IMG/VR virus record: IMGVR_UViG_2923318301_000001
Coordinates: 1 to 46,847 of that record
Direction: 5' to 3' (one strand)
DNA: 46,847 bases
Origin: a virus
Taxonomy: Duplodnaviria > Heunggongvirae > Uroviricota > Caudoviricetes
In this document: piece after piece, positions 1 through 45,839 of the stretch
Layout of the letters: the number at the start of each line of letters is the position of its first letter
Numbering within the stretch: the stretch's first letter is position 1
Translations under genes and position numbers: made by a program
Notes under the pieces: model-generated
Seen by the model: only the letters and a program-made list of their open reading frames with translations
Databases searched by the model: none
Told to the model about the DNA's origin: nothing

Positions 1-1053
1 CTAGTAGTAATGGTCATAACCTCCGCTTTCTCTTCTGGCTCTGGATGCTCTCACTCGTGCTTTTCTTAACATCCTTAACAGCGGGTGGGTTTGTACTTTG
101 TTCGAGTTTATTGTCTGTGAGGATAGTAACTCCCTGCGCTCTGTCTCTGCCTCTTTGGTGACCGCTATCACTGATAAATCCCAATCGTGTTTGCTAATTA
201 ACGGTGCTTGGAACGGGGTGATTGGTGAGCGATTTATGTCTTGTCGTTTCAATGTACGCTGTATCTGTCGCTTAACTTTGTAGTTGTCTTTCCTTGATGC
301 CTGAATGGCTTTTAGTATGCGTCTTACAGCATGAAAGCCAGTGATAGAAAGTGTTTCTTTTTTTATCTCATGCCGCGCCCAGCCATTCGAATAACCCCAA
401 ACGTTGGCATCTGACCAATCATATAGGCTCTTGCTCGCCTCTCTATTAAAGTCATTTAACTTAGTTTCGGGTTTTGCCATGTAATCAATCTGTTTACCTA
501 TACACCTTGTAGGCTCTGAATATTGCTGACCTTTCAAATCTAGATCCCACTGGGGAGGAACATTTGATGGGATTGCATTGTTTGCCAGTGTTACCCATTT
601 GCTGACAATTTTGCCTGCTTGCCCATTAATGCTTCTTTCGTTCACCATAATTATTGCGTGTACATGCGGCTCTGACTGGTGTTGAGCCCACTCCATGACG
701 TAAACCCACTGATTGCCTTTCGAAGTCAACCATCTGGTAAGTGCCTTTAACGCTTTGTTGAATTTCTCTGGCGTTGTTCCCTTAACGGGTCTGAAGGTAA
801 AGGAGTAGGGGATACCACTAGTTGATTCGACATCCAGAGTAAACAAAGCTCGCCTCATTGTACGCCATTTCTTCTTTGTCCAAGCTGGTGGTATGCAGTG
901 GTTAGCCTTTGATGATTGGCGTTTATTCTCCGCCTTTAATTCATTACGTTTGTGCGTAACTGATCTCACATAAGCTAATGTGCGACCATTGATGTGATTG
1001 ATTACGGCTTGTGATTTTGTGGATAGACTCGCGTCTTTATCGTATAATTCCAT
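1..1053 (-). CDS. Replication initiation protein, probable HUH-type rolling-circle initiator
   Basis: 350-aa ORF with stop at window position 1..3; H-x-H motif (PHVHAIIMV) typical of HUH endonucleases; last gene of the alpA-led operon. Family assigned by motif only. Confidence 0.55.
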   Translation of the reverse strand: MELYDKDASLSTKSQAVINHINGRTLAYVRSVTHKRNELKAENKRQSSKANHCIPPAWTKKKWRTMRRALFTLDVESTSGIPYSFTFRPVKGTTPEKFNKALKALTRWLTSKGNQWVYVMEWAQHQSEPHVHAIIMVNERSINGQAGKIVSKWVTLANNAIPSNVPPQWDLDLKGQQYSEPTRCIGKQIDYMAKPETKLNDFNREASKSLYDWSDANVWGYSNGWARHEIKKETLSITGFHAVRRILKAIQASRKDNYKVKRQIQRTLKRQDINRSPITPFQAPLISKHDWDLSVIAVTKEAETERRELLSSQTINSNKVQTHPLLRMLRKARVRASRARRESGGYDHYY

Positions 1054-1121
1054 GTGTAAAGTTCATATATTTCAATTGCTTCAAAGCCGACTCTCGCAAA
1101 GTCGGCTTTCTGCTTTGTCAA

Positions 1122-1508
1122 TCACAGGTATTTGGTTTCAATACCCTTGTAAACAGTTCTAAGCGTGTCTTCAGGCACTTTACCCACCAGCCCACGCAAC
1201 AACGACAACGTTATGTTTACCTTACGCAATGTCTTTACATATCTGGCGTTCGTCCTCCAGATCTTCAATGTTTCGTCTTTATCGCTGTGGTATGCTTCTA
1301 AATTGCGTTCTGTGACGTGATACGCCTCTGTTTTAAACTGCTCAACAGGAATTCCCCAATCGTTGCGTAACAGCGTTAAAACGCGACTACGTTCGTGATT
1401 TCCGGCTTTCCTTAATATGTCGTCAAACTCTTTTGGGGTAAGCTTCCTGCCACTTAGTAGGATATCGCGTATATTCGCGGCGACCTGAGAGCGTGTAAGA
1501 GTGCTCAT
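1122..1508 (-). CDS. Hypothetical protein (island operon)
   Basis: 128-aa ORF co-oriented with flanking genes; 4-bp overlap with the upstream ORF (1505..1508) suggests translational coupling; no recognisable motif. Confidence 0.55.
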   Translation of the reverse strand: MSTLTRSQVAANIRDILLSGRKLTPKEFDDILRKAGNHERSRVLTLLRNDWGIPVEQFKTEAYHVTERNLEAYHSDKDETLKIWRTNARYVKTLRKVNITLSLLRGLVGKVPEDTLRTVYKGIETKYL

Positions 1509-1699
1509 TTTCGTCCCCCCAGAAATCTGTCGGCAAATTGATCAAGGCTGGAGGCAAGCCACACCCGGCGCTTGCGTCCATTGATGGTCTGATTTATATA
1601 GGGAGGAAAGCTTCGGATATATCGCTTTAACTGATAGAAGCGTGACAGACAGACGCCAAGATATTCTGCTGCGTCTTTAGCGGTCAGGTAATTAATCAT
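1505..1699 (-). CDS. Small helix-turn-helix DNA-binding protein (AlpA/excisionase-like fold likely)
   Basis: 64-aa basic ORF; N-terminal LTAKDAAEYLGV resembles HTH_17-type excisionase/regulator proteins. Confidence 0.5.
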   Translation of the reverse strand: MINYLTAKDAAEYLGVCLSRFYQLKRYIRSFPPYINQTINGRKRRVWLASSLDQFADRFLGGRK

Positions 1700-1780
1700 T
1701 TTATTCCCTTACTGTTGTACCAAAATGTAATATGGAGGAGACTTCCTGTCTCCCCAAATTACTCTACAATTTTTGTGCGA

Positions 1781-1972
1781 TTAAATCAGATCTATTACTA
1801 AGTAATCATCGCCAGAGGCAATGCCGATAGCTTTTCCACCGCTGGTGGATTTCACATCATAAACCCAGGTGCTGGTGCTCACCTTTTGTGGCTCTGATCT
1901 AATCAGTGCCGCGAAGGTTTCAAAATCAACATGGGTTACGTTCAGCTTTTGATTGGTAGGTTTCAACTGCAT
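1781..1972 (-). CDS. Hypothetical small protein
   Basis: 63-aa ORF co-oriented in the island operon; no motif; could be spurious. Confidence 0.35.
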   Translation of the reverse strand: MQLKPTNQKLNVTHVDFETFAALIRSEPQKVSTSTWVYDVKSTSGGKAIGIASGDDYLVIDLI

Positions 1973-2020
1973 TCTTAATACCTAATAACGTATTGTTTGT
2001 ATCCTGTTTGTTTCTGTTCT

Positions 2021-2212
2021 TTAGTTACTACGCGATTCGGCTATACGTTGATCGATCCAGTCATCGATCTCGCTTTCAATAAAAGCTATTGCGCGAGCAC
2101 CAATCTTGACTGATTGGGGGAATTGTCCTCGGCTCATCAGAGCATATACCCACGCCTTGCTATAGCCAGTGCGTTTCAAAACCTCAGATAGCCGAATCAG
2201 CGACTTTTTCAT
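2021..2212 (-). CDS. alpA: AlpA-family transcriptional regulator
   Basis: 63-aa protein MKKSLIRLSEVLKRTGYSKAWVYALMSRGQFPQSVKIGARAIAFIESEIDDWI is a textbook AlpA sequence; ATG at 2212 preceded by GAGGT ribosome-binding site. Confidence 0.85.
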   Translation of the reverse strand: MKKSLIRLSEVLKRTGYSKAWVYALMSRGQFPQSVKIGARAIAFIESEIDDWIDQRIAESRSN

Positions 2213-2368: not shown

Positions 2369-3124
2369 TTATTTTGGACGCTTTTTGGTTGCTTTTTTCT
2401 TAAATTTGGGGGCGTACTTATCCAAAGCGTTCGTTAGCAATCTCCGAAATGTATCTGGGTGGGTATCGCTGTCTTCATCGTTCCCGAATATTATGTTGTT
2501 TTCTATTACTTGGGCACTAACCCTATTGATACTAAGGTTTCCTCCACTATGGAAATCTTTGCTTGATTCAAATAAGGCAATCGCCATTCCGGCGATCATC
2601 TTTAAAGCCGTATCTTTTCCTCTCCAGTTTTGTTCTCTTTCTACTTTTTTTGACAGTGCTCCAATTTCTGGTTCGTTATCTGGAACATTCATATCCAGTT
2701 CTGGGAAGAAGTTCACAACCTCGGAGCGCTTGAAATAAAACGAATCGTAAGACCCATACCAATCATCCTCATCATCGTGATATAAAAAGTCTTCCCCTTT
2801 CCTAACGTTGAAAGTCCCTTCTTCCCCCGGTATCGGGCTCTCCCTGTATTCATGCCCCATAGCCAGAAGACCTAAAAACTCCACACACTGCTTTTCAAAG
2901 TCGTCATTAGTTGTAAAACCTGATACCCAATCGAACTGATAAAAGCCCAGCCCCCCTAAAGTATCTGGTTTAGCTTTGCTCAATCTGTAGTTACTTAAGA
3001 TAGCGGCAGCGATCATTCTTTCATTTTCATTGTTTAGTCTTGCCAGTTCGCTGATCAGATTACCAAACCAGATTTTATCTTCTGACTCGTTATAAAACGC
3101 ATCTAGTCCTGTCATCTTAGTCAC
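2369..3124 (-). CDS. Hypothetical acidic protein, island cargo gene between int and alpA
   Basis: 251-aa ORF; start is GTG at 3124 or ATG at 3115, either within 8 bp of the int stop (3117..3119); acidic clusters (DDEDDWYGSYDSFYF, NDEDSDTHPD), lysine-rich C-terminal tail; no domain I can name. Confidence 0.65.
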   Translation of the reverse strand: MTKMTGLDAFYNESEDKIWFGNLISELARLNNENERMIAAAILSNYRLSKAKPDTLGGLGFYQFDWVSGFTTNDDFEKQCVEFLGLLAMGHEYRESPIPGEEGTFNVRKGEDFLYHDDEDDWYGSYDSFYFKRSEVVNFFPELDMNVPDNEPEIGALSKKVEREQNWRGKDTALKMIAGMAIALFESSKDFHSGGNLSINRVSAQVIENNIIFGNDEDSDTHPDTFRRLLTNALDKYAPKFKKKATKKRPK

Positions 3125-4403
3125 GGCGTGTTCTCCTTCCGAACTCGTAAGGGCTTATATGTATTTCTCGATTGGCGTCCAGATAATCTGCCCACCATTG
3201 AAGCATTAGTTTGCGCTCTTCTAAGTAATCAGCCTTGTGCTTGTAGGCTCTTTTAACGTCTTTATATTCTTTGTGGCTCATCTGGCGCTCTACTGCGTCC
3301 TCCTGCCACAAACCGGACTCCATCAGGGAACTACAGGCTGTGGCACGGAATCCATGTCCAGTTACGTCCTCTTGCGTGTTATAGCCCATTAAGCGTAATG
3401 CCTTGTTTACCGTGTTTTCACTCATCACGCCTTTGGTGTTTCTTTCATTCGGAAACACAACATCGTAGCTTCCGCTTAGTTCTCTCAACTGCTTTACAAT
3501 AGAAACAGCCTGACGGCTAAGAAGCACGATATGTTCGTCTTTTCCCGTTTTTGTGCCACGGGTGGAAAACCTCACACCATCGATAGGCTCTCTTTTTTTA
3601 GGGATAATCCACTCAGCCCGATCAAGGTCAAACTCTTTCCAACGGGCAAACCTTAACTCGCTTGAACGAACAAATGTCAACATGGTTAGCTCAATGGCAA
3701 GGCGGGTAAGAGGATTACCTTTAAAGCTGCCCAATCGAGTGAAAAAGTCTGGTAAATCTCTGGGATGTAGTGCGGCATGATGCTTAGTTTCATATTGCAT
3801 TAACCGGACATCGAGATCATTCGTGATGATTTCTGTCTTAATGCCGCTCAGACGGGCGCTATGTATGATGTCCTTAACTCGTTGTTTAAGTCGGTTGGCT
3901 GTATCGTGTTTCCCGGCGTCATCTACCTTCTTAAACAAAGGTAAAATTGTCATCGCCTCCAGTTTGCGAATATCCGAAGTGCCAATGTGAGGGAAAATAT
4001 ACATTTCAAGGCTTCTAAGTACGCGTTTTCGTTGGTCTTCGTTCCACATCTGGTGGCTTTCAACCCATTGACGTCCTATTGTCTCAAAAGTGAATGCGCC
4101 TTTTTCTTCTGCTTTTGCTGCTCTTTGCTCTGCTTTGGGATCTATCCCCTTGACTAACAACTTTTTGGCGTTGTCTCGTTTTTCTCTGGCGTCTTGTAAG
4201 CTAATGGTTGGATATACACCAAAAGCAAGTCTGTCTTCTTTCTTATCTGATGGGCGGCGATACTTCATTCGCCAATACTTCGACCCGGTCTGGGATACTT
4301 CAAGATAAAGACCACCACCATCAGACAATTTATAAGTTTTGTCTCGTGGCTTAGCTGCTTTGCACTGACGGTCTGTTAATTTGTTGAGGGTATTTCTGGA
4401 CAT
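3117..4403 (-). CDS. int: Tyrosine site-specific integrase (P4-type)
   Basis: 428 aa; N-terminal arm-binding-like region, C-terminal catalytic region with HGFRAT motif and downstream Tyr; start 164 bp from the att repeat. Confidence 0.9.
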   Translation of the reverse strand: MSRNTLNKLTDRQCKAAKPRDKTYKLSDGGGLYLEVSQTGSKYWRMKYRRPSDKKEDRLAFGVYPTISLQDAREKRDNAKKLLVKGIDPKAEQRAAKAEEKGAFTFETIGRQWVESHQMWNEDQRKRVLRSLEMYIFPHIGTSDIRKLEAMTILPLFKKVDDAGKHDTANRLKQRVKDIIHSARLSGIKTEIITNDLDVRLMQYETKHHAALHPRDLPDFFTRLGSFKGNPLTRLAIELTMLTFVRSSELRFARWKEFDLDRAEWIIPKKREPIDGVRFSTRGTKTGKDEHIVLLSRQAVSIVKQLRELSGSYDVVFPNERNTKGVMSENTVNKALRLMGYNTQEDVTGHGFRATACSSLMESGLWQEDAVERQMSHKEYKDVKRAYKHKADYLEERKLMLQWWADYLDANREIHISPYEFGRRTRRD

Positions 4404-4566
4404 GTTGGGGGCACATATACAATCGAACCAGCAATGCCCCTAATTATGCCCCATAGATTTACTTGATTTCAATAGACGGAAATGGACGTCATGAGAATAA
4501 AATCTCTTTATTTTTATATGTTTACATGGGATTTATAGACAATGGTAGACGTTGGTGTACAGCGGG

Positions 4567-4987: not shown

Positions 4988-5293
4988 TTATTTCACCTCT
5001 TGCTGTGACATTGTTGAAAAATGGATACCAGCTCGTTGCTGCCAGACGATCCAACCGAGAGTCATATCCCATGCCATGTATTCGTTATTGCCGTTTTTTG
5101 CTCTCCGACGATCTACTAAGTCACCGAAACGCTTTTCCATGAATAATTCATAAGCTTCGCGTTCATCTGGTTCTACTTCCAGAGATAGGAGTGCGATTTC
5201 ATAAGCACGGCGCTCAATATCGTCTCGCACGTCAAGGCTGCTGATACGCTCTTTAATTTCTTTAATCAGTTCTTTGTCGGTAAAAGTGGTCAT
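4988..5293 (-). CDS. yfdT: Phage early protein, YfdT-like
   Basis: 101-aa ORF; length and position (next to torI) match my recollection of CPS-53 YfdT; 1-nt overlap with upstream gene. Confidence 0.6.
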   Translation of the reverse strand: MTTFTDKELIKEIKERISSLDVRDDIERRAYEIALLSLEVEPDEREAYELFMEKRFGDLVDRRRAKNGNNEYMAWDMTLGWIVWQQRAGIHFSTMSQQEVK

Positions 5294-5655
5294 TATGCTC
5301 CAGCCTCCGGTGCTTTTGGCATTACTGCCCAGTGAGTGATATTGACGTTTTCAAGGTCCCCGACCTGAAATGTCCACTGCCATTCTCCGGTTTCTTTTTG
5401 TCCCCAGGTGTACCAGAGAGAACGCCAGCCAATTAGCCAGCCTTCTCCGTTAGCATCGAATAACAAAACACTTTCATTTGCTGGTGGCAGTTCAGTTGAC
5501 ACTGGTATTACTTTGTTTTCCTGTGCTGCACATTTAGCTTCAAGCGCATCGAATTTACGCACTAGGTATTCAGCATCTGTTTCATTTACTTTCAGATCTC
5601 GCGGTACACATCTCCCACGAAGAAACCCTTCCATTTCGAAAACATTCATGCGCAT
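5293..5655 (-). CDS. yfdS: DUF551-like phage protein, YfdS-like
   Basis: 120 aa; C-terminal ITHWAVMPKAPE resembles the DUF551 signature. Confidence 0.65.
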   Translation of the reverse strand: MRMNVFEMEGFLRGRCVPRDLKVNETDAEYLVRKFDALEAKCAAQENKVIPVSTELPPANESVLLFDANGEGWLIGWRSLWYTWGQKETGEWQWTFQVGDLENVNITHWAVMPKAPEAGA

Positions 5656-6182
5656 TTGCGTAACTCCGATAACTCGTTAAAGCGTTCCATAAACATCCCG
5701 TAGGCATGGCCCGGAGCCAGTGGAATCACGTTGAACATCTCTGTTGCCGGGATACCTTCCAGTACAGGCCAGAAAGAGCCATCATCAAGCCCGAGATCGC
5801 GGCGTTCGGTTGCCAGCATGATGAGATCGGCATATTTCACGGGCGTACTCATAACTGGGGGTAACCCGTATTTCTCACGGATTACGGCGTCTATTTTTTC
5901 TTCCATTTGTTTATAGTCAGGAAGAAGGCGTTTCAGTGGTGCGGGAATGTCCTGGCAATACGCTTCTGTTGCATCATGCATTAACGCTTCAAAAGCAAAT
6001 TCCTGCGGCACCAGCTGGCTGCAAAGAACCGCATGTTGGGCGACGCTGTAGAAGTGCGAAAGATGACCGGCAAAGCGACAGATATTTGAAAGGGAAACCG
6101 CGATATCGTTAATATCGATGTCGTCTTTATTTATCCTGTCATAATAAAAATGCTTCCCGGAAAAAGTTTTAATAAATGACAT
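5646..6182 (-). CDS. yfdR: HD-domain phosphohydrolase, YfdR-like
   Basis: 178 aa from MSFIKTFSG (track ORF extends 9 codons upstream to 6209); His/Asp-rich motifs (HxxHD...D) consistent with HD hydrolases. Confidence 0.7.
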   Translation of the reverse strand: MSFIKTFSGKHFYYDRINKDDIDINDIAVSLSNICRFAGHLSHFYSVAQHAVLCSQLVPQEFAFEALMHDATEAYCQDIPAPLKRLLPDYKQMEEKIDAVIREKYGLPPVMSTPVKYADLIMLATERRDLGLDDGSFWPVLEGIPATEMFNVIPLAPGHAYGMFMERFNELSELRKCA

Positions 6183-6309
6183 TTTGTTCTCCACGTATAT
6201 GCGCTGCACCGCGCTGAATTCTGGTAAAAAGAATCCCTCACCATCCGGCGATTATTGAGTAAATTACGTTTCCATAAATGCCCCCGCAGGGGCATTTGCA
6301 GTAATGAAA

Positions 6310-7134
6310 TCAGGCGGTGAAAGTACCAATAAAGGTTTCTACTTTGCTGTCCTTGAATTTCTCAACAAGCAGATCACGAAATTCGTTAGCCATTTCTTCC
6401 TGCACCGCCTCCAGCTGAATAATGCGCAGAACCAGTACAGGACGATCGCCAGTGATAATACTGAGGCGTAATTTAAACGGACGTTCTTTCAGACCTTCAA
6501 ACGGAACGCATTTAAATTCAAATGCCACTGGCATAATGTCTTTGGTCTTCGCTTCGACAGACTCCATCAGGGAGCGTTTGCCGCTGAAGTCATTATCTTC
6601 AAAATCAGCGGTCTGGTTTGCTTCAATCGTGATTTTACGGACAGCCGCAGCCGCTTTTGTTGCCTGAATAGCGTCACCATTAGCATCAAAGCCCACAAGA
6701 TAGTCGGCCCAGTCTTCAATCCATTCTGCCAGTGACTTCTGGGAGTTACGCTCGCCGTTAACAGACAACAGAGCAGAGAACGGTGCTGTCTTTTTCAGTT
6801 TGAGTGTGGCGGTGTTATCTGCGTGACCTGGTTCATCAATAGTACCCAGGTTAAGCACACTGACGGCACGCATATTATCAGCATCGATAAAGCAGCGGGT
6901 GCCTTCATCTGCAAGATCTTTAGAATAACGGGTAAAGTCATCGATGCTGGCAGTGGAAAGCGCACCACGGAAACGGAAGCGATTTAAATTAAATTTTTCC
7001 AGATCATGAATGCGGAAATTCTCAGGCAATGCCACAGCATCGGCACCAATCTTACTGATAATTTCATTAACACCCTGAGCAGAAATAAGGGCATGGATTT
7101 GATTAATTGCGGTTGCGTCTAAGTTCTGAGACAT
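6310..7134 (-). CDS. yfdQ: Phage early protein, YfdQ-like (DUF2303-type)
   Basis: 274-aa ORF; sequence and length match my recollection of CPS-53 YfdQ. Confidence 0.7.
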
Positions 7135-7199
7135 AATAAGTCCTCACTATATAAAGATATTCAGTGATGAGATAAATAATCAGTTAATTAAAAACGATA

Positions 7200-7562
7200 T
7201 TAACGACCTGCTGCGCGGAGTTTTCCGTCAGGTTCACCGGCAAGAGTCAGTAACTGTCCCTGGTCTTCCTGCAGAATAGTCAGGCGACCACCGCGATTGA
7301 CATACATCGGCGTTTCGGTGGTGTCTTCTTCGGAAATTTTCCCGCGGTTAGTCGGGCGAACATATGAGAGTTTGTGTTTGATTTTCACTCGGTTCTCATC
7401 AAACGGTTCGATTTCCAGGTTGAGCGAGACCTTACCTTTGGTTTTCGTGTTCATCACACCGGAAGCGACTTCACTGAGAACTGCGCCGATTTTGGTTTCA
7501 AATACGCCGCCGTCCAGCTCCCCGATAAATGCCTGCACATCAGTACTGCGTTCGCTAGCCAT
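7200..7562 (-). CDS. yfdP: Phage early protein, YfdP-like
   Basis: 120 aa from ATG at 7562 (MASERSTDVQ...), GAGGAG ribosome-binding site upstream; the track's 226-aa extension runs into a GC-rich structured region and reads Arg/Pro-rich, so rejected. Confidence 0.7.
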   Translation of the reverse strand: MASERSTDVQAFIGELDGGVFETKIGAVLSEVASGVMNTKTKGKVSLNLEIEPFDENRVKIKHKLSYVRPTNRGKISEEDTTETPMYVNRGGRLTILQEDQGQLLTLAGEPDGKLRAAGR

Positions 7563-11690: not shown

Positions 11691-11692
11691 TC

Positions 11693-34387: not shown

Positions 34388-34399
34388 GGAGTGTGAGGA

Positions 34400-37300
34400 A
34401 TGGGTAAAGGTAGCAGTAAGGGGCATACCCCGCGCGAAGCGAAGGACAACCTGAAGTCCACGCAGCTGCTGAGTGTGATCGATGCCATCAGCGAAGGGCC
34501 GGTTGAAGGTCCGGTGGATGGATTAAAAAGCGTGCTGCTGAACAGTACGCCGGTGCTGGACACTGAGGGGAATACCAACATCTCCGGTGTCACGGTGGTG
34601 TTCCGTGCCGGTGAGCAGGAGCAGACACCGCCGGAGGGGTTTGAATCCTCCGGCTCCGAGACGGTGCTGGGTACGGAAGTGAAATATGACACGCCGATCA
34701 CCCGCACCATTACGTCTGCAAACATCGACCGTCTGCGCTTTACCTTCGGCGTGCAGGCACTGGTGGAAACCACCTCAAAGGGGGACCGGAATCCGTCGGA
34801 AGTCCGCCTGCTGGTTCAGATCCAGCGTAATGGTGGCTGGGTGACGGAAAAAGACATCACCATTAAGGGCAAAACCACCTCGCAGTATCTGGCCTCGGTG
34901 GTGGTGGGTAACCTGCCGCCGCGCCCGTTCAATATACGGATGCGCAGGATGACGCCGGACAGCACCACAGACCAGCTGCAGAACAAAACGCTCTGGTCGT
35001 CATACACCGAAATCATCGATGTGAAACAGTGCTACCCGAACACGGCACTGGTCGGCGTGCAGGTGGATTCGGAGCAGTTCGGCAGCCAGCAGGTGAGCCG
35101 TAATTATCATCTGCGCGGGCGCATTCTGCAGGTGCCGTCGAACTATAACCCGCAGACGCGGCAATACAGCGGTATCTGGGACGGAACGTTTAAGCCAGCA
35201 TACAGCAACAACATGGCCTGGTGTCTGTGGGATATGCTGACCCATCCGCGCTACGGCATGGGGAAACGTCTTGGTGCGGCGGATGTGGACAAATGGGCGC
35301 TGTATGTCATCGGCCAGCATTGCGATCAGTCGGTGCCGGACGGTTTTGGCGGCACAGAGCCGCGCATCACCTGTAATGCGTACCTGACCACACAGCGCAA
35401 GGCGTGGGATGTGCTCAGTGATTTCTGCTCTGCGATGCGCTGTATGCCGGTATGGAACGGGCAGACGCTGACGTTCGTGCAGGACCGACCGTCGGATAAG
35501 GTGTGGACCTATAACCGCAGTAATGTGGTGATGCCGGATGATGGTGCGCCGTTCCGCTACAGCTTCAGCGCCCTGAAGGACCGCCATAATGCCGTTGAGG
35601 TGAACTGGATTGACCCGAATAACGGCTGGGAGACGGCGACAGAGCTTGTGGAGGACACGCAGGCCATTGCCCGTTACGGTCGTAACGTCACGAAGATGGA
35701 TGCTTTTGGCTGTACCAGCCGGGGGCAGGCACACCGCGCCGGGCTGTGGCTGATTAAAACAGAACTGCTGGAAACGCAGACCGTGGACTTCAGCGTGGGT
35801 GCCGAAGGGCTTCGCCATGTACCGGGCGATGTCATTGAAATCTGCGATGATGACTATGCCGGTATCCGCACCGGCGGGCGCGTGCTGGCGGTAAACAGCC
35901 AGACCCGGACGCTGACGCTCGACCGTGAAATCACGCTGCCATCTTCCGGCACCACGCTGATAAGCCTGGTTGACGGGCAGGGGAGTCCGGTCAGCGTGGA
36001 GGTTCAGTCCGTCACCGACGGCGTGAAGGTGAAAGTGAGCCGTGTTCCTGACGGCGTTGCTGAATACAGCGTATGGGGGCTGAAGCTGTCGACGTTGCGC
36101 CAGCGCCTGTTCCGCTGCGTGAGTATCCGTGAGAACGACGACGGCACGTATGCCATCACCGCCGTGCAGCATGTACCGGAAAAAGAGGCCATCGTGGATA
36201 ACGGGGCGCACTTTGACGGCGACCAGAGCGGCACGGTAAATGGTGTCACGCCGCCAGCGGTGCAGCACCTGACCGCAGAAGTCACCGCAGACAGCGGGGA
36301 ATACCAGGTGCTGGCGCGCTGGGACACGCCGAAGGTGGTGAAGGGCGTGAGCTTCCTGCTTCGCCTGACCGTGGCAGCGGATGACGGCCGTGAGCGGCTG
36401 GTCAGCACGGCCCGGACGACGGAAACCACTTACCGCTTCACACAACTGGCTCTGGGGAACTACAGGCTGACAGTCCGGGCAGTAAATGCGTGGGGGCAGC
36501 AGGGCGATCCGGCGTCGGTATCGTTCCGGATTGCCGCACCGGCAGCGCCGTCGCGGATTGAGCTGACGCCGGGCTATTTTCAGATAACCGCCACGCCGCA
36601 TCTTGCGGTTTATGACCCGACGGTACAGTTTGAGTTCTGGTTCTCGGAAAAACGGATTGCGGATATCAGGCAGGTTGAAACCAGCGCGCGTTATCTTGGT
36701 ACGGCACTGTACTGGATAGCCGCCAGTATCAATATCAAACCGGGCCATGATTATTATTTTTACGTTCGCAGTGTGAACACCGTTGGCAAATCGGCATTCG
36801 TGGAGGCTGTCGGTCGGGCGAGCGATGATGCGGAAGGTTACCTGGATTTTTTCAAAGGCAAGATAACCGAATCCCATCTCGGTAAAGAGCTGCTGGAAAA
36901 AGTTGATCTGACGGAGGATAACGCCAGCAGACTGGATGAGTTTTCGAAAGAGTGGAAGGACGCTAACGATAAATGGAATGCCATGTGGGGCGTCAAAATT
37001 GAGCAGACCAAAGACGGCAAACATTATGTCGCGGGTATTGGCCTCAGCATGGAGGACACGGAGGAAGGCAAGCTGAGCCAGTTTCTGGTTGCCGCTAACC
37101 GTATCGCGTTTATTGACCCGGCAAACGGGAATGAAACGCCGATGTTTGTGGCGCAGGGCAACCAGATATTCATGAACGACGTGTTCCTGAAGCGCCTGAC
37201 AGCCCCCACCATTACCAGCGGTGGCAGTCCTCCGGTATTTTCCCTGACATCAGACGGAAAGCTGACCGCTAAAAATGCGGATATCAGTGGTAGTGTGAAT

Positions 37301-37813
37301 GCGAACTCAGGAACGCTCAACAATGTCACGATTAACCAGAACTGTACGATTAAGGGCATGCTGGAGGCGACCCAGGTCAGAGGGGATTTCGTTAAAGCTG
37401 TATCAAAAGCCTTCCCGAAAAAAGTCGGTACGTGGGGTAACACGGAAACACCAAACGGTACGGTTACAGTCACCATCAGCGATGATCATAACTTTGACCG
37501 CCAGATTATTATTCCGCCCATTATTTTTAACGGTATAGCGTATGACGATCCGGGGAGCGGAAATAACCCAGGAGGCACGCGATACACGGGTTATGGTTTT
37601 GAAGTTCGCAAAAACGGCGTATTAATCGCATCCAGAGAAACTAAAGGGGCCATTCCCGGTAGTTACAGTGCAGTTATTGATATGCCGAGTGGCAGGGGAA
37701 GCGTCACTCTGGAGTTTAAGATTTTCCAGAAAGGCAATCAGGGGGCAGGCAATATCACCGACTGTACGGTGATTGTGACCAAAAAAGCCGCTTCCGGCAT
37801 CAGTATTCGTTGA
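34400..37813 (+). CDS. J: Central tail fibre / host specificity protein J
   Basis: 1137 aa; collinear with lambda J in length and recognisable blocks. Confidence 0.95.
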
Positions 37814-37883
37814 AATATTTATAACCCCAATAAAGGGCGTCAGGAATGACGCCTTTTTTATTGCAGAAAAGCGAGAGGTAATT

Positions 37884-38483
37884 ATGCGTAAAGTTTGTGC
37901 AGCAATTTTGTCCGCAGCCATTTGTCTGGCCGTATCCGGTGCGCCTGCATGGGCGTCTGAACATCAGTCCACGCTGAGCGCGGGGTATCTTCATGCCTCG
38001 ACGAACGTCCCCGGCAGTGATGATCTGAACGGGATTAACGTGAAATACCGTTATGAGTTTACGGACACACTGGGGCTGGTGACGTCATTCAGCTATGCAG
38101 GAGACAAGAATCGCCAGCTGACCCGTTACAGCGATACCCGCTGGCATGAAGATTCCGTTCGTAACCGCTGGTTCAGCGTAATGGCGGGGCCGTCTGTGCG
38201 CGTAAATGAATGGTTCAGCGCGTATGCGATGGCGGGTGTAGCTTACAGCCGTGTGTCGACTTTCTCCGGGGATTATCTTCGCGTAACTGACAACAAGGGG
38301 AAAAAGCACGATGTGCTGACCGGAAGTGATGACGGTCGCCACAGCAACACGTCTCTGGCGTGGGGGGCTGGCGTGCAGTTTAACCCGACCGAATCCGTGG
38401 CCATTGATATTACTTATGAAGGCTCCGGCAGTGGTGACTGGCGCACTGACGGTTTCATCGTGGGTGTCGGTTATAAATTCTGA
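37884..38483 (+). CDS. lom: Outer membrane protein Lom (Ail/Lom family)
   Basis: 199 aa; signal peptide, beta-barrel pattern, C-terminal GYKF; lambda Lom-like. Confidence 0.9.
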   Translation: MRKVCAAILSAAICLAVSGAPAWASEHQSTLSAGYLHASTNVPGSDDLNGINVKYRYEFTDTLGLVTSFSYAGDKNRQLTRYSDTRWHEDSVRNRWFSVMAGPSVRVNEWFSAYAMAGVAYSRVSTFSGDYLRVTDNKGKKHDVLTGSDDGRHSNTSLAWGAGVQFNPTESVAIDITYEGSGSGDWRTDGFIVGVGYKF

Positions 38484-38536: not shown

Positions 38537-38547
38537 GTGGGGTGAAT

Positions 38548-41500
38548 ATGGCAGTAAAGATTTCAGGTGTACTGAAAGACGGCGCAGGTAAACCGGTACA
38601 GAACTGCACAATCCAGCTGAAAGCAAAACGTAACAGCACCACGGTGGTGGTGAACACGGTGGCCTCAGAAAATCCGGATGAAGCCGGGCGTTACAGCATG
38701 GACGTTGAGTACGGTCAGTACAGCGTTATTCTGTTGGTGGAAGGCTTCCCGCCATCGCATGCCGGGACCATCACCGTGTATGAAGACTCACAACCGGGTA
38801 CGCTGAATGATTTTCTCGGTGCCATGACGGAGGATGATGCCCGTCCGGAGGCACTGCGCCGTTTTGAGCTGATGGTGGAAGAAGTGGCGCGTAACGCGTC
38901 CGCGGTGGCACAGAACACGGCAGAGGCTGCTATTTCTGCCTCTCAGGCCGAAGAGTTCGCGAGCAATGCTTCTGAATATGCGCTGAATAAGTTCACGTTC
39001 TATAAAACGCCGAGCGATCCGGACGGTACAATTGCAGGCCTTGCTGCTACTACCAGCGGGCAGTCTTTCCGTGTAGCGGAAGGCCCGGGAGCAACAGCGG
39101 CATTCAAAACCTACGAGAACCAGGATGGCGTGGCTATACTACAGGCTTCTCAGCCAGGCACAGCTGCTATAACAGGGACAATCCGCGAATTTCCCACGCT
39201 GGAGGCGGCACAGGCTGATGCAGACGCTGGCAATATTCTTTCTGGTTCAAAATGCTGGGTAACCAGTGCTATAAATACCTCGCTGGCTGACGAGTATGTA
39301 AATACATCCGGGGTTATGACTGCAACCGGGAGAACAATTATTTCCCAGTACAGCCTATCTTCGTCTATATCAAGAGAAGCAACTAGAAGAAAAAATGGTG
39401 ATTATCAGGATTTGATTGAATTCAAATCTCTTGATGATACAGCACTACCATTACCGGAAAATTCAGTATTAGAATTTTTGTCTCTGGCAACCACTACGGA
39501 TGTAAACACAAACTTCTATCGCCTTGTTTTTTCTTCGCTGGGTTCTGAGGTTGCGTCACTGGTTTTTCCTGGGACGAACACCCAGTATTCTGATGGTAAA
39601 TTCTGGTCAGCGTATCGCCTGTTCCGATTTCAGGATTTGAAGTATGTTTCCATTCTGGAAACGACCAGTAGTGTAGTTCGGGTTCGCTATGACCTGCCGG
39701 CTGGGTTTGGTGTTCCGGTAGCAGGCTCAAACTATATTGCACTTGATATTACAGGCAAGTTTTATCCGGCGCAGGCAGGCTCAGTTAACTCCGTCACAAG
39801 GAAGTCAATATCCGGGACAGCAATTGCCAACGCCATTCAGTTCGTGGTTACCATCGCTGAACTTACGGCTGCTGGTTATACGGCGTCGACCGTTGTTGAT
39901 TACATCAACTCAATAGCGCCAGATTGCCTCTTTGCGGCATATGCGGCATATGATACGACGATTGCCCAGACAGGGTTTGAAGATTTTTTCAGGATTCAGT
40001 TACCTGCTGGTGATTATACCGTTAGCCGTGATGGCTTTGCGCCTTCAGGACTGGCAGTGTTACCTGCCGGTGCGTATTCGGTATGGCGTAAAAAGCCTGT
40101 AAGGCAGGTATTTGTTGGAAACTTCCTGAGAAATGTTGCTGATGTTAAAAATCTGCTGTCGGCAGAATATAAAAACTATCCCGTTGAGCTTAAGGTGTCG
40201 TTTGGTCCCGGCGAAGTGCCAGACTCCGATGCGCTGAAGGTGATGGACGCTGACGGCAACGTGTTTGACTGCCAGTTTGCGGATAACGTTTATCCCAATC
40301 CACGCCTGAAATCGAACACCGGATACCATGCCGACGGCTCCCTGGCATCAGGGTCTGTGTTCATCACCGATACCCTGGCATCAGGACAGCAGAAATATTA
40401 CGAACTCAGGGCATACAATCGTCGCCGCCAGGACCTGGCCTCAGAGTCCTTCCCGCAGCTCGTGAGGGTGGCTGACGGGTTCACCGTTACCGTGGGCGGG
40501 TATGTGTATTTTTTCCAGCGCCAGAACAGCCTGGGGCTGACCAGTATCACCGACCCGGCAGGACAGACGCACAGTTTTGCGCATTCCTGTTACTGTACCG
40601 GGATTGTCTCCGGCGGATCCTCAAGTAACAAGATGGTGCTCGGTGCATCACTGCGCATGGTTAATACCGGGCCGGTCTTTACTGAGCTGGAGCTGACCGT
40701 CAGAAACCGGACCATCGGAACACTGGCTGAAGGGGCGTTACAGTCCACAGTACGCTACCGGATTTTCAAAAATGGCAAGGTGCTTATCCGGGTCATGACC
40801 ACGGCTACGCAAGATATTCCGGCTGGAGTATTATTTGGTGCATATTCCCGTCTGAACCTGAATGATGGTGCATATACCTTTGATGCCGCTAGAGCACTGA
40901 CGTACTGGACGGATTCAGTCACCGGCAAGCGATTTACGGCCACGACGGTCTTTGCTAATGGGGATATCCACCGAGATGGCCCTGCTTATGGGCCAACGCG
41001 CCCGATACGGGCAACGGCGCTGCAACCCACAGGCACAACAACTCGGCTGGACGCGGGATGGCTTTTCGTTGACCTGAATGACGATTCATTCCTGAACTGG
41101 CCTGTGCCAAAAAACTGGACGTGGACACATGAGACATGGATTGACTGCGACAACACCATCACCAGTTCCACCTCAGAGGTTAATGCACTGCTGGTAAGTC
41201 AGGCTAACAACCGCCCGGTAGGGTTCATGGGTGATTGCAGTTATGCAGGTGTTCTGCGGCTGGACATGCTGGAGAAAATCGCCTGTCACGTCAGGGGATC
41301 CGTTGAGTGGTGGAAAAGCACTGACGCTACTGTTTATGGTGGCGGACCCGATGTGAAAACGCAGTTCTATTGCCACATGGCAGAGATTTTTCTGTTAGAA
41401 AAGTATGGCATCAGCACGCTGAACACAGTGTATACGAATTTTAAATCGTACATGAGGGGATTTGGCGGCATAACTAATCCAGGTATTATGTTCACTGATG

Positions 41501-42282
41501 GATGGTGGGGGTTGCAGTTCCAGTCGCGTCTGAGTATTCCGTGCTATGAGTGGCTCTACAAAATGGCGGTGAAGGCCGGAGATACAGCCAAACAAACCGA
41601 GCTGAAGGCGGGGATTAAATCCCTCGCGGATGCCGTCATGGTGTCATATAACACCTATGGTGGCGTGGCTCTGGTGGGGACAGCCACAAACTCAGGAAAC
41701 AGCAACTCTAACGCGACAGCCATGCGCGTGCTGGCGCTGGCGATTTATATGGGGCTGGATACCGGCGGGACGTACCTTGCTGCATTCAATGCGCTGGAGA
41801 CCTTCATCACGAACTCAGCGACATTCATGAAAGCGGAAAACATTATTCTCGATGGCCCGTCGGATTCCACGCTGAAGAGCATGTACCTGCCGTACATGGT
41901 TTACGCCACTAATAACTACCTGCTGGCCTGCAAGCTGCTTAACCGGACACCAAAGTTTGACCTGGTGAATTTTATCCTGACAGCGTCAAACAGCGCGGGA
42001 GGATTCAGTGAGGTGGATTACTGCATCTCTGAAAGCCGACGTGGTGGCGCGAACACTATCGCGTTTGCGTTACTGCCGCTGTTTCAGTCCGCCAGGCCGT
42101 CAGCAATGATTGCCGCAAAATCGCTGTTCGGAATTTTTGAGACGCAGTACGGGCCGAAACCGGGACTACCAAAGCGCTTCTTTGATTTTGACGGCAGCAG
42201 TGCGGCTGGCAGCACGATGTATGACCCGTGCTTTGTGGCGTCAACGCTTGCCGACCTTTGGCTGTCATATGGCTACAATTAA
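38548..42282 (+). CDS. Side tail fibre / tailspike-like protein with lambda Stf N-terminal anchor and divergent large C-terminal region
   Basis: 1246 aa; first ~120 aa near-identical to my recollection of lambda Stf (MAVKISGVLKDGAGKPVQNCTIQLKAKRNSTTVVVNTV...), remainder unrelated to the Stf repeats. Confidence 0.8.
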   Translation: MAVKISGVLKDGAGKPVQNCTIQLKAKRNSTTVVVNTVASENPDEAGRYSMDVEYGQYSVILLVEGFPPSHAGTITVYEDSQPGTLNDFLGAMTEDDARPEALRRFELMVEEVARNASAVAQNTAEAAISASQAEEFASNASEYALNKFTFYKTPSDPDGTIAGLAATTSGQSFRVAEGPGATAAFKTYENQDGVAILQASQPGTAAITGTIREFPTLEAAQADADAGNILSGSKCWVTSAINTSLADEYVNTSGVMTATGRTIISQYSLSSSISREATRRKNGDYQDLIEFKSLDDTALPLPENSVLEFLSLATTTDVNTNFYRLVFSSLGSEVASLVFPGTNTQYSDGKFWSAYRLFRFQDLKYVSILETTSSVVRVRYDLPAGFGVPVAGSNYIALDITGKFYPAQAGSVNSVTRKSISGTAIANAIQFVVTIAELTAAGYTASTVVDYINSIAPDCLFAAYAAYDTTIAQTGFEDFFRIQLPAGDYTVSRDGFAPSGLAVLPAGAYSVWRKKPVRQVFVGNFLRNVADVKNLLSAEYKNYPVELKVSFGPGEVPDSDALKVMDADGNVFDCQFADNVYPNPRLKSNTGYHADGSLASGSVFITDTLASGQQKYYELRAYNRRRQDLASESFPQLVRVADGFTVTVGGYVYFFQRQNSLGLTSITDPAGQTHSFAHSCYCTGIVSGGSSSNKMVLGASLRMVNTGPVFTELELTVRNRTIGTLAEGALQSTVRYRIFKNGKVLIRVMTTATQDIPAGVLFGAYSRLNLNDGAYTFDAARALTYWTDSVTGKRFTATTVFANGDIHRDGPAYGPTRPIRATALQPTGTTTRLDAGWLFVDLNDDSFLNWPVPKNWTWTHETWIDCDNTITSSTSEVNALLVSQANNRPVGFMGDCSYAGVLRLDMLEKIACHVRGSVEWWKSTDATVYGGGPDVKTQFYCHMAEIFLLEKYGISTLNTVYTNFKSYMRGFGGITNPGIMFTDGWWGLQFQSRLSIPCYEWLYKMAVKAGDTAKQTELKAGIKSLADAVMVSYNTYGGVALVGTATNSGNSNSNATAMRVLALAIYMGLDTGGTYLAAFNALETFITNSATFMKAENIILDGPSDSTLKSMYLPYMVYATNNYLLACKLLNRTPKFDLVNFILTASNSAGGFSEVDYCISESRRGGANTIAFALLPLFQSARPSAMIAAKSLFGIFETQYGPKPGLPKRFFDFDGSSAAGSTMYDPCFVASTLADLWLSYGYN

Positions 42283-42324: not shown

Positions 42325-42779
42325 ATTTGCGGGGGTATATATGGCGCTTAAGCTATTAGCCAATAATAACGCAAAGAGTGTTCTCGCTGCGGGTATTAGC
42401 GCGTCCGCTACCGTTATTACCGTGGGTACCGGAGCGGGGGCTTTATTCCCTTCCCCTGTATCTGGACAGAGCTATTTCAAATTAACGATAACCGACGCGG
42501 CCACGAAAACAATATCTGAAATTATGCACGTCACGTCTGTATCCGGTGACGTGATGACAGTAATTCGTGGTCAGGAAGGAACTACGGCACGCGTATGGTC
42601 AACGAATGACATTGTCGCGAATTTAATGACCGCCGGATCATTGTTATCTTTCCTGCAGATCAGCAATAACCTGTCAGAAATTAAAGATGCCGGTGAGGAT
42701 GCGATAAATGAAGCCCGTTATAACCTCGGAATATCTGATTCCTCTGGTTTTGTCGGGCGTTCACTTGGCGCTCCAAAAG

Positions 42780-42788
42780 CTTTCTATG
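42780..42788. repeat. IS903 target-site duplication (left copy)
   Basis: ctttctatg, identical to 43846..43854. Confidence 0.85.
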
Positions 42789-43845
42789 GGCTTTGTTGAA
42801 TAAATCGAACTTTTGCTGAGTTGAAGGATCAGATCACGCATCTTCCCGACAACGCAGACCGTTCCGTGGCAAAGCAAAAGTTCAAAATCACCAACTGGCC
42901 CACCTACAATAAAGCCCTCATCAACCGTGGCTCCATAACTTTCTGGCTGGATGATGAAGCTATTCAGGCCTGGTATGAGTCAGCAACACCTTCTTCACGA
43001 GGCAGACCTCAGCGCTATTCTGACCTTGCCATCACCACCGTTCTGGTCATTAAACGCGTGTTCAGGTTGACCCTGCGGGCTGCACAGGGTTTTATTGATT
43101 CCATTTTTTCTCTGATGAACGTTCCGCTACGCTGCCCGGATTACAGCTGTGTCAGCAGGCGGGCAAAGTCGGTTAATGTCAGTTTCAAAACGCCCACCCG
43201 GGGTGAAATCGCACACCTGGTAATTGATTCCACCGGGCTGAAGGTCTTCGGTGAAGGCGAGTGGAAAGTCAAAAAGCATGGCCAGGAACGCCGCCGTATC
43301 TGGCGTAAGCTGCATCTCGCCGTTGACAGTAAAACACATGAAATCATCTGCGCTGACCTGTCGCTGAACAACGTTACGGACTCAGAGGCCTTCCCCGGGT
43401 TAATCCGGCAAACCCACCGGAAAATCAGGTCAGCCGCCGCCGATGGCGCTTACGATACCCGGCTCTGTCACGATGAACTGCGGCGTAAGAAAATCAGCGC
43501 GCTTATCCCTCCCCGAAAAGGTGCGGGTTACTGGCCCGGTGAATATGCAGACCGTAACCGTGCAGTGGCTAATCAGCGAATGACCGGGAGTAATGCGCGG
43601 TGGAAATGGACAACAGATTACAACCGTCGCTCGATAGCGGAAACGGCGATGTACCGGGTAAAACAGCTGTTCGGGGGTTCACTGACGCTGCGTGACTACG
43701 ATGGTCAGGTTGCGGAGGCTATGGCCCTGGTACGAGCGCTGAACAAAATGACGAAAGCAGGTATGCCTGAAAGCGTGCGTATTGCCTGAAAACACAACCC
43801 GCTACGGGGGAGACTTACCCGAAATCTGATTTATTCAACAAAGCC
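42789..43845 (+). mobile_element. IS903 (IS5 family), intact
   Basis: 1057 bp; 18-bp terminal inverted repeats ggctttgttgaataaatc (42789..42806 and reverse complement at 43828..43845); single transposase ORF; 9-bp direct target duplication. Confidence 0.85.
42866..43789 (+). CDS. IS903 transposase (DDE)
   Basis: 307 aa from GTG at 42866 (track ORF starts at TTG 42821); IS5-family transposase features. Confidence 0.8.
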   Translation: MAKQKFKITNWPTYNKALINRGSITFWLDDEAIQAWYESATPSSRGRPQRYSDLAITTVLVIKRVFRLTLRAAQGFIDSIFSLMNVPLRCPDYSCVSRRAKSVNVSFKTPTRGEIAHLVIDSTGLKVFGEGEWKVKKHGQERRRIWRKLHLAVDSKTHEIICADLSLNNVTDSEAFPGLIRQTHRKIRSAAADGAYDTRLCHDELRRKKISALIPPRKGAGYWPGEYADRNRAVANQRMTGSNARWKWTTDYNRRSIAETAMYRVKQLFGGSLTLRDYDGQVAEAMALVRALNKMTKAGMPESVRIA

Positions 43846-43854
43846 CTTTCTATG
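43846..43854. repeat. IS903 target-site duplication (right copy)
   Basis: ctttctatg, identical to 42780..42788. Confidence 0.85.
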
Positions 43855-44442
43855 CAAACGGAACCTATACGCGATCTCCTCTGGCCCGTTATGCAAAAGT
43901 AACGTTGACCGGCGCCGGTGGTGGCGGTGGCGGCTGCCAGGCCTCCAACAATACAGAAACCTTCTCCGGTGCCGGCGGCGGTGCGGGTGCGACCATTATC
44001 GTATGGGTTGACCTGTCTGCTGCCAGTTCTTACGCGATTACTGTCGGCAAGGGTGGTAAGGGCGGAGTTGGCGCAGTAAGTGGTGCGGATGGTGGTGCTA
44101 CCTCGTTTGCCAGCCTGTTCTCAGCTCCTGGCGGGAAAGGCGGCGTGAAGTCAGGCGTGTCCAATACCGCCGGCGGCGCCGGAGGTACGGCGGCGACCGG
44201 AGATATCAGGATCAACGGTGGTACCGGCTCAGATGGACAGACAGGCTCAAGCCTTCTGACGGGCAACGGCGGGGCGTCGTATTTTGGCGGCGGTGGCCGG
44301 GCGGGTTCTCAGGCCGGTATTGCTGGCGCAGCTCCCGGATCCGGTGGTGGTGGCGCGTATGACCTTGGGTTTACCGGTACGGCATTTACCGGTGGTGATG
44401 GTGCTACTGGCATGGCGATCGTGGAAGAATTCGCGTAATGGC

Positions 44443-45603
44443 TTACACTCCTGCACGACCATCGATGTAATCAGCCCACCACTGCATCATTTCTCTGCGC
44501 TTATCGAGATACTGAGCATGATTGTAAATTCCACGCACAGATCCGCCGTTGGCATGTGCCAGTTGCACTTCAATAGCATCAGCGGGCCATTCGTTCTCGT
44601 TCATAATCGTGCTGAATTCATGCCTGAATCCGTGACCGCTTTCCAGCCCCTCATAGCCGATTTGTTTGATCACAAGCAATACCGCGTTCTCGCAGATTGG
44701 TTTCTTCTTATCGTTGCGCCCGGCAAAAACAAACTCTGAGACTGGTTTGGTGATTGAGCTTAGCGTAGTGAGAAGTTCAACCACCTGGTCTGACATAGGA
44801 ACCACATGAATTTTGCGTCCCTTCATCACACTGGCGTCGATGGTGATAATCCTGTTTTCAAAATCGACGTTCTTCCATAGCATGGAACGAAGCTCTTTCG
44901 TTCTTAGGGCTGTGTAGCGTAAAACTTTGGTCGCAATGAGCGATACGATACTTCCTGAAAATGTTGCCAGTGCTTTATTGAATGCCGGGATCTGGTCTGC
45001 AGGAAGAAACGGGAAGTTCTTCTTGCGGTATCCCTTCATGGCGTCAGCAAGGTCAGGTGCTGGGTTATATTTAGCCCTTCCGGTGACAATAGCGTAACGG
45101 AAAACCTCTCCGCATCTTCTGCGGGCTTTGTTGGCTCGCTCCATTGCACCGCGATCTTCGAATCTTCGGATTACTTCCAGCAGTTGCATCGGCTCAATAT
45201 CCTGAATCTCAAGACCGCCGATGATGGGTAAAATGTCGTCATCAAACATTTTGGCAAGTTCAGTTGCATAGCCTACTGACCAGACTTGCTTCTTGTGCTC
45301 GTACCATTCCTTGTAAATCGCACTAAAGGAATTGTTGTTAGACGAAGCCTTTTTCGCCTTTACCGGATCGATGCCAGCCGAGATGTCTTTCCTCGCAGTC
45401 CATGCCTTATCCCTTGCCTCCTGCAAAGTCATAAGTGGATATTTTCCGACGGTCAGGATTTTCTCCTTACCGTCAATCTTGTAGCGAAGCTGCCATACCT
45501 TTTTCCCGGATACAGGAACATAAAGGTACAGGCCATTACCATCGAGAAGGCGGTATGGTTTTTCTTTCGGCTTTGCTGCTTCAATCTGCTTAACGGTGAG
45601 CAT
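44443..45603 (-). CDS. intS: Prophage integrase IntS (tyrosine recombinase)
   Basis: 386 aa from MLTVKQIEAAKPKEKPYRLLDG (track start at 45639 adds 12 codons); matches my recollection of E. coli IntS; adjacent to argW. Confidence 0.9.
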   Translation of the reverse strand: MLTVKQIEAAKPKEKPYRLLDGNGLYLYVPVSGKKVWQLRYKIDGKEKILTVGKYPLMTLQEARDKAWTARKDISAGIDPVKAKKASSNNNSFSAIYKEWYEHKKQVWSVGYATELAKMFDDDILPIIGGLEIQDIEPMQLLEVIRRFEDRGAMERANKARRRCGEVFRYAIVTGRAKYNPAPDLADAMKGYRKKNFPFLPADQIPAFNKALATFSGSIVSLIATKVLRYTALRTKELRSMLWKNVDFENRIITIDASVMKGRKIHVVPMSDQVVELLTTLSSITKPVSEFVFAGRNDKKKPICENAVLLVIKQIGYEGLESGHGFRHEFSTIMNENEWPADAIEVQLAHANGGSVRGIYNHAQYLDKRREMMQWWADYIDGRAGV

Positions 45604-45763
45604 GGGTAAAAATCCGGTGGGTAAAATTATTTTATCCACTTTTTACCCGTCATGGAGTGCGGCTGTCAACGATCTGACGCGAACCATGACGAACCGTGAA
45701 TATACGGAAGGCTTGATATTCAGGGGATTTTGCGGACTGGTACGGATGGGAGCGAACTGATAA

Positions 45764-45779
45764 ATGGTGTCCCCTGCAG
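45764..45779. repeat. att core at the tRNA (attL)
   Basis: atggtgtcccctgcag, identical to 4567..4582; covers the tRNA 3' acceptor end. Confidence 0.75.
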
Positions 45780-45839
45780 GAATCGAACCTGCAATTAGCC
45801 CTTAGGAGGGGCTCGTTATATCCATTTAACTAAGAGGAC
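45765..45839 (-). tRNA. argW: tRNA-Arg (anticodon CCU)
   Basis: 75-nt reverse-strand sequence with 3' CCA, T-arm GGTTCGATTCC and anticodon loop CTCCTAA; matches my recollection of E. coli argW. Confidence 0.9.

Follow-up and report, generated by a model that had tools for sequence, protein, structure and literature searches.

Very Probable Successive Integration of a Lambdoid Prophage and a 10.3-kb Island at the 3' End of argW in Escherichia coli SCEC020023

This study investigated the tRNA gene argW as a target of integration in IMG/VR virus record IMGVR_UViG_2923318301_000001, a stretch of 46,847 nucleotides hereafter called the window. Its source genome is that of E. coli SCEC020023 (NZ_CP025950.3), which the parts of the window that were searched matched at 100%. 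The results revealed that two unrelated integrative elements, a 41.2-kb lambdoid prophage (intS to torI) and a 10.3-kb island (int to resolvase), were very probably added successively at the argW 3' end, which gives the order argW, prophage, island, and chromosomal flank. An initial annotation of the window had proposed tandem site-specific integration, and this proposal was supported both by three direct copies of the attachment (att) core and by the occurrence of each element alone in other genomes. The proposal is correct, but the arrangement is ordinary; it is expected at a tRNA hotspot, and the sequence is already in RefSeq.

Attachment cores and integrases at argW

ARAGORN identified one tRNA gene in the window, tRNA-Arg(CCT), which is argW (45765..45839, minus strand) and corresponds to the tRNA that had been placed beside intS. 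The 16-nt core ATGGTGTCCCCTGCAG, which is the published KplE1 core CTGCAGGGGACACCAT (PMC2951348), was present in two exact copies, one at the argW 3' end (45764-45779) and the other at 4567-4582, and the window contained no further match at up to 2 mismatches. The chance expectation determined with shuffled sequences was 0.02 matches, and none of 100 shuffles contained two. Both copies lie next to an integrase gene at the coordinates originally reported, and a third copy had been predicted to the left of the window. We detected this copy, cTGGTGTCCCCTGCAGGAATCGAA, in the source genome at L001 14259-14282, 5.7 kb left of window base 1, with 23 nt in common with the tRNA 3' end. When up to 3 mismatches were allowed, the 20 kb left of the window yielded only the two expected copies. 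The position of the third copy indicates that the island is 10.3 kb long. Three direct att copies delimit the two elements, each of which has its own integrase beside a copy, and the middle copy (4567-4582) is a hybrid site, flanked by one arm of the phage and one arm of the island.

At the tRNA end, alignment with K-12 and the ARAGORN result placed the prophage attL arm at 45604-45763, followed by the core at 45764-45779 and tRNA-Arg(CCT) at 45765-45839, all on the minus strand; the conserved chromosomal flank beyond argW carries yfdC (45915..46847, minus strand). Beyond the third att copy, RefSeq annotates a DUF4942 gene fragment, csc sucrose genes, and a dsdX remnant. The argW-dsd interval is a known variable region (PMC3032704).

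Two open reading frames (ORFs) on the minus strand encode tyrosine integrases that match NF007246, namely, intS of the prophage (44443..45603, 386 amino acids [aa], E 7e-71) and the integrase gene of the island (3117..4403, 428 aa, E 4e-69). The product of the former is 97.7% identical to K-12 IntS, and that of the latter belongs to an argW-specific lineage of the P4 family. The two proteins share 31% identity (E 1e-63), and RxxEL and HGFR motifs and the C-terminal tyrosine were seen by eye in the integrase alignment. Both start codons point at their own core copy from approximately 160 bp away and in the same orientation, in agreement with the earlier description of a co-oriented pair, each tRNA-proximal to a core. 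The designation "P4-type" for the left integrase was valid in a broad sense, in which it holds for both integrases, as both match the P4-like class NF007246. Relatives at least 96% identical to the island integrase, in Citrobacter and E. albertii, adjoin tRNA-Arg(CCT), and those of the next tier, approximately 58% identical, adjoin tRNA-Leu(CAA), tRNA-Leu(TAA), or tRNA-Phe. Neighbours of the tRNA-Leu and tRNA-Phe type are expected for P4-family integrases.

Distribution of the junctions and order of arrival

To examine how the two elements are distributed, we searched 700-nt synthetic junctions against 5,426 complete E. coli genomes. The empty site, in which the flank is joined to argW, was present in 1,415 genomes. 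The island integrase arm lay directly on argW, representing the island alone, in 196 genomes (among the matches listed, the top ones were 100% identical), and the junction of flank, core, and torI, representing an IntS/TorI prophage alone, was found in 372. The tandem junction, comprising the island integrase arm, core, and torI, occurred in 35 genomes. In strain 7/2, the same island (99.9%) stands in tandem with a P22-like podovirus prophage bearing the same IntS/TorI module. Apart from the core, the island and the prophage of the window have no sequence in common (E was above 1 for the best remaining match), and their guanine-plus-cytosine (GC) contents are 41% and 51%, respectively. Because each element occurs alone with exact junctions, no sequence is shared, and the island ends are conserved, the tandem reading is well supported.

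Tandem accretion at one att site is well documented, in tandems of a phage with an integrative and conjugative element (ICE; PMC13651849), in a review of integrative and mobilizable elements (PMC5704250), and for a spot that is occupied either alone or in tandem (bioRxiv 10.64898/2026.01.13.699239). Such arrays likewise exhibit three direct att copies, a separate recombinase for each element, and the occurrence of each element alone elsewhere. The window differs in its partners, as it pairs a lambdoid phage with a small Rep/AlpA island rather than with an ICE. No description specific to argW tandems was found in the literature.

In the mechanism that we propose, the island would have been resident first, and the phage would then have integrated into the regenerated tRNA copy. 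Both tyrosine recombinases would carry out strand exchange in one shared 15-nt stretch, TGGTGTCCCCTGCAG. With the att copies numbered from argW, the phage would excise between copies 1 and 2 by means of intS, torI, and KplE1-type arms, and the island between copies 2 and 3 by means of its own Int and AlpA. The excised island would replicate via its HUH Rep, and the resolvase would resolve multimers. Because the elements have separate recombination modules, each should excise alone between its own att pair.

Several considerations weigh against this account. Independent excision is predicted from gene content, and the viability of the prophage is not assured, because IS903B lies in one of its genes and RefSeq flags a frameshift. 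As for the order of arrival, the prophage might have entered an empty argW first and the island might later have entered the distal att copy of the phage (attR); the final map would be identical, so the structure alone gives no order, and in E. coli TUM9754 a second IntS prophage occupies the distal copy beside the resolvase arm of the island. We nevertheless consider arrival of the prophage first unlikely and arrival of the island first likely, because the constant partner is the island, which occurs by itself in many more genomes (196) than it does in tandem (35), and because the exact prophage is rare. The island was 99.8-100% identical across strains beside at least two unrelated phages, the lambdoid phage of the window and the P22-like phage of strain 7/2, and the exact window prophage was found in only about four genomes.

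We also considered whether the island lives as a satellite or hitcher on IntS/TorI phages, sharing their site through dependence and switched on by prophage induction. Its layout, with int, AlpA, and Rep in 8-10 kb and no structural genes, is satellite-like and resembles that of integrase-only islands with defence genes, which have been proposed as uncharacterised satellites (PMC10121019). Furthermore, there is no terminator-like site between torI and the co-directional island int, so read-through from an induced prophage is possible. However, tandems were not enriched (35 observed versus 46.6 expected, odds ratio 0.68, with a p-value that is unreliable because of shared ancestry among the genomes), and the island was alone 5.6 times more often than in tandem. 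The island and the prophage have no cos, pac, or other sequence in common, and Pfam and PHROG searches detected no packaging or capsid-remodelling genes in the island. Dependence on a helper is thus improbable, and the link was rejected on the lack of both tandem enrichment and a shared cos or pac sequence. It is likewise improbable, if marginally less so, that the argW islands of 8-10 kb are an undescribed hitcher family with a P4-type Int, AlpA, a HUH Rep, a distal resolvase, and a swappable slot of two or three cargo genes that are probably anti-phage. In the tandem, the island int comes immediately downstream of torI, and prophage induction could on this view drive the island int and couple the excision of both elements.

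Phage-inducible chromosomal minimalist islands (PICMI; PMC10803314), phage-inducible chromosomal islands (PICI), and the integrase-only defence islands (PMC10121019) are likewise small and have int, AlpA, a replication initiator, and a variable cargo slot without structural genes; the PICMI and PICI initiator is of the primase type, whereas the window island has a HUH Rep (PF23343) and is not enriched beside prophages. Among the features of P4-like satellites, a P4-family integrase beside a tRNA 3' end is present, but the alpha primase/helicase, the capsid-size genes sid, psu, and delta, and a helper cos were not detected; Pfam and PHROG scans of the island proteins found neither a P4 primase/helicase domain nor any capsid or packaging function of the P4 type, and the island has no sequence in common with the prophage beyond the core.

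A single composite element of 51.5 kb that moves as a unit, with the inner att copy as a relic, is very improbable. Three direct repeats would in principle permit recombination between the outer copies, but hundreds of genomes contain one part without the other, with exact junctions, the two arms brought together at the outer sites, one from the phage and one from the island, carry different motifs, and the GC contents differ by 10 points; the composite was rejected on the junction counts. That the repeat at 4567-4582 is a product of chance and the left integrase an unrelated neighbouring locus has almost no probability, as no point was found in its favour and it is refuted by the shuffle expectation of 0.02 matches, by the presence of this core at the island ends in both E. 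coli and Klebsiella, and by the K-12 attR junction, which falls at the same base. The left integrase is part of an island that abuts argW directly in the 196 genomes, with the same junctions, and that occupies argW in Klebsiella, Citrobacter, and E. albertii as well.

Other arrangements were observed at argW. The region of E. coli TUM9754 (L005 4659-11944) contains two intS genes, with the second IntS prophage in the distal att copy, indicating that displaced tRNA copies serve as integration targets. In O157:H7 TW14359 (L004 9001-17600), the resolvase arm of the island and the 3' part of rep are joined to what remains of a P22-like prophage, at whose end lies intS; the argW region of this strain is thus left over from a comparable tandem whose parts were fused by deletion. 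In E. coli 23CRST025 (L093 1-1375), a degraded second recombinase gene and a hypothetical gene lie to the left of an island-only copy and may be what is left of another island of the array.

The prophage and its relation to CPS-53/KplE1

The prophage had been linked to the cryptic K-12 prophage CPS-53/KplE1, and the genome comparison demonstrated this relationship in three collinear blocks, corresponding to window 4565-7581 (96.3%), 10982-12184 (98.7%), and 44471-46847 (97.4%). The TorI protein matches that of K-12 in 66 of 66 residues, compared with 97.7% identity for IntS. The IntS orthologue is encoded beside the tRNA and TorI at the opposite end of the prophage, and both are transcribed in the tRNA direction. 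The attR arm (4583-4655) is followed by torI (4656-4856, minus strand), which encodes the excision directionality factor, as assigned by identity to K-12 TorI. The attR arm differs from that of K-12 by 1 base, and the attL arm with the core (177 bp) is 97.2% identical without gaps. Judged by whole-arm identity, the predicted IntS and TorI binding sites of both arms appear to be conserved as in KplE1, which is excised in vivo by IntS and TorI between its two cores (PMC2951348).

The IntS/TorI module is also known in HK620, Sf6, and CUS-3 (PMC2951348), and HK620, Sf6, and HK633 match the stretch that runs from the core over torI as far as window 4922 at 97-98%. These last three phages, which integrate at argW, share the recombination module, including a piece of the tRNA T-arm (seen in HK620; the Sf6 match spans the region). 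They are podoviruses with P22-type morphogenesis, whereas the window prophage has lambda-like siphovirus head and tail genes. The T-arm piece, GGAATCGAACCTGCAA, is a second copy of part of argW at 4876-4891, approximately 20 bp upstream of torI, and matches bases 45779-45794 exactly over 16 nt. Together with the core it constitutes a 31-nt block of the tRNA 3' end that is split by 293 bp carrying torI. The piece is also present in K-12 and HK620, and the Sf6 match spans the same region; in HK620, it lies inside an annotated cII-dependent "phage integration" promoter and cII site.

CPS-53 has the same attachment gene and 16-nt core as the window prophage, and its yfdP-T and yfdO/yfdN segments are collinear at 96-99%. 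The early-left genes yfdT, yfdS, yfdR, yfdQ, and yfdP (4988..7562, minus strand; RefSeq) encode proteins 95-99% identical to those of CPS-53. The K-12 prophage lacks window 7582-10981, in which the immunity region and the 5' portion of O are located, as well as everything from approximately 12185 to 44470. Conversely, K-12 carries gtrABS (yfdGHI) next to intS, and the window prophage does not, as had been stated; the neighbour of intS is instead a glycine-rich-domain gene split by IS903B. On the basis of these alignments, the prophage appears to be a nearly complete representative of the lineage from which CPS-53/KplE1 arose by decay.

The immunity, replication, lysis, head, and tail modules, which had been described as complete, were all identified with RefSeq and Pfam, together with antitermination and packaging genes. 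The immunity region encodes a cI-like LexA/S24 repressor (8891-9517, minus strand), cro (9615-9815, plus strand), and the cII-like ymfL (9853-10404, plus strand). The replication module (10749..12181, plus strand) consists of an O-like initiator of 313 aa followed by YfdN. Approximately six 15-bp iterons resembling TCAAAATCTGACCCG lie at 11037-11159, inside the O-like gene, and are the likely replication origin; K-12 yfdO corresponds to the C-terminal 122 aa of the initiator and retains the iterons. Genes for a LexA-like protein, RusA, KilA-N, and DUF968 follow within 12181..18018 (plus strand), in which the Q antiterminator (14734-15099, plus strand) and the holin, endolysin, and Rz genes (16754-18018, plus strand) are also located. 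All of these assignments, as well as that of an accessory SDH/Clp-fold serine protease gene between Q and the lysis genes (15304-16299, minus strand), were based on RefSeq and Pfam. A second accessory gene encodes an Iss/Bor lipoprotein (18050-18343).

According to RefSeq, the packaging, head, and tail genes (19036..38483, plus strand) encode a DUF1441 small-terminase candidate, TerL, a portal protein, a ClpP-protease/capsid fusion, lambda-like tail proteins Z to J, and Lom; the gene for this Lom-family outer-membrane protein (37884-38483) is accessory. The side tail fibre gene (38542..42282, plus strand) is an open ORF of 1246 aa with a phage_tail_N domain (E 1e-71). RefSeq records only its N-terminal part, as a pseudogene of 445 bp, and has no annotation for the other 3.3 kb; nevertheless, the ORF is open, and its product matches phrog_20877 over the full length (residues 124-1243 aligned with positions 101-1155 of the 1161 in the profile, E 3e-178). 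No known domain was found in the C-terminal 1,100 residues of the fibre.

The description of the prophage as intact was accurate with regard to its complete modules but slightly overstated, as a search for inactivating lesions revealed IS903B in one gene and a frameshift flagged by RefSeq. IS903B (42789-43845) is flanked by a perfect 9-bp target duplication, CTTTCTATG, and splits the glycine-rich-domain gene (42341..44438, plus strand), which encodes 343 aa when restored. Strain ECSD228 carries an otherwise identical prophage with the uninterrupted 343-aa gene; the absence of IS903B there indicates that the insertion is recent. The frameshift, at approximately 7577-7887, is located within a 6,885-bp block that aligns to phage vB_EcoS-569R4 (ON470598.1) with only 2 gaps.

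That phage is 98.1% identical to the prophage over this block (window 5302-12184) and 94-98% identical in the aligned blocks that cover most late genes; phage cdtI is 98.7% identical over the head genes. In 569R4 and in lambdoid phages of the PhiR40_1/cdtI/mEp460 type, collinearity at 94-98% identity extends over the early-left, immunity, O/YfdN, head, and tail genes. The genome recorded for 569R4 is partial and lacks the int/att end, and its lysis region, the genes downstream of Q, and the tail fibre end differ from those of the window prophage. Lambdoid phages close to the prophage have already been deposited as phage genomes.

The island family and its attachment arms

The genes of the island are arranged, in the tRNA sense, in the order int, 251-aa protein, AlpA, 63-aa protein, HTH_17 protein, 128-aa protein, Rep, two cargo proteins of 330 and 821 aa, a 58-aa ORF, and a serine recombinase. 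The gene for the 251-aa protein (2369..3124, minus strand) starts with an 8-bp overlap with the end of int. This protein had no match in Pfam, NCBIfam, PADLOC, or PHROG; its family has only 10 related clusters, and an AlphaFold model based on a 7-sequence alignment was unusable (pLDDT, the predicted local distance difference test score, of 39). The AlpA-family regulator (2021..2212, minus strand; PF05930 Phage_AlpA, E 3.6e-18) is described in PHROG as "excisionase and transcriptional regulator" and is a candidate excision directionality factor. It is followed on the same strand by the genes for a 63-aa protein without assigned function (1781-1972), a 64-aa HTH_17 DNA-binding protein (1505-1699), and a 128-aa protein without assigned function (1122-1508). 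The HUH rolling-circle Rep-like protein of 350 aa is complete in the window (1..1053, minus strand; PF23343 REP_ORF2-G2P, E 7.6e-7), and its translation contains the motifs HVHAI (HUH) and YMAK (YxxK); the Rep family is narrow, with 8 clusters in 5.8 billion proteins.

The rest of the island, left of the window, comprises the cargo genes, the 58-aa ORF, and the serine recombinase or resolvase (PF00239). The cargo slot lies between Rep and the resolvase (L001 15748-19202, 4.3 to 0.8 kb left of the window), and neither the 821-aa nor the 330-aa protein had a match in Pfam, PADLOC, PHROG, or the PDB. Variants of the slot (L093, L094, L090) contain a SIR2 protein or a GTPase-domain pair in other strains and an HNH_2 gene set in Klebsiella, and the slot looks like a hotspot for anti-phage cargo.

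A syntenic island is located in Klebsiella pneumoniae between yfdC/argW and the chromosome, where it is bounded by exact 23-nt repeats, TTCGATTCCTGCAGGGGACACCA, at argW. Its Rep is 50% identical, and the small backbone genes are conserved in order and size. The island belongs to an argW-specific family, present in Klebsiella as well, that combines a backbone of Int, AlpA, and HUH Rep with a resolvase arm and a slot for exchangeable cargo; no description of an Int-AlpA-HUH Rep-resolvase island family was found in the literature. P4-family islands at leuX and other tRNAs, whose integrases are approximately 58% identical, have the same layout, with the tRNA 3' end approximately 165 bp upstream of int and in the same orientation, whereas the window island targets argW and has a HUH Rep.

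The int-proximal att arm of the island (4404..4566) contains three GGGGCA motifs, at 4408-4413, 4435-4440, and 4447-4452. Five of the seven GGGGCA copies of the island are in its two arms, and pairs 12 bp apart are present in both (window 4408-4452; L001 14335-14352), with position and spacing kept in Klebsiella. The motif was absent from the phage arms. These motifs are candidate arm-type integrase sites. A promoter scan predicted a promoter-like site on the minus strand at 4443-4472; because two of the three int-proximal copies overlap it, the arrangement suggests autoregulation of the integrase by analogy with intS.

Taken together, these findings provide a worked example of how composite "argW islands" form. 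The prophage also provides a full-length template that explains the decay of CPS-53, in the course of which K-12 lost the immunity region, part of O, and nearly all late genes. The practical value of the array is modest; as two different recombinases share one 15-nt crossover site, it lends itself to experiments on their cross-talk at hybrid att sites.

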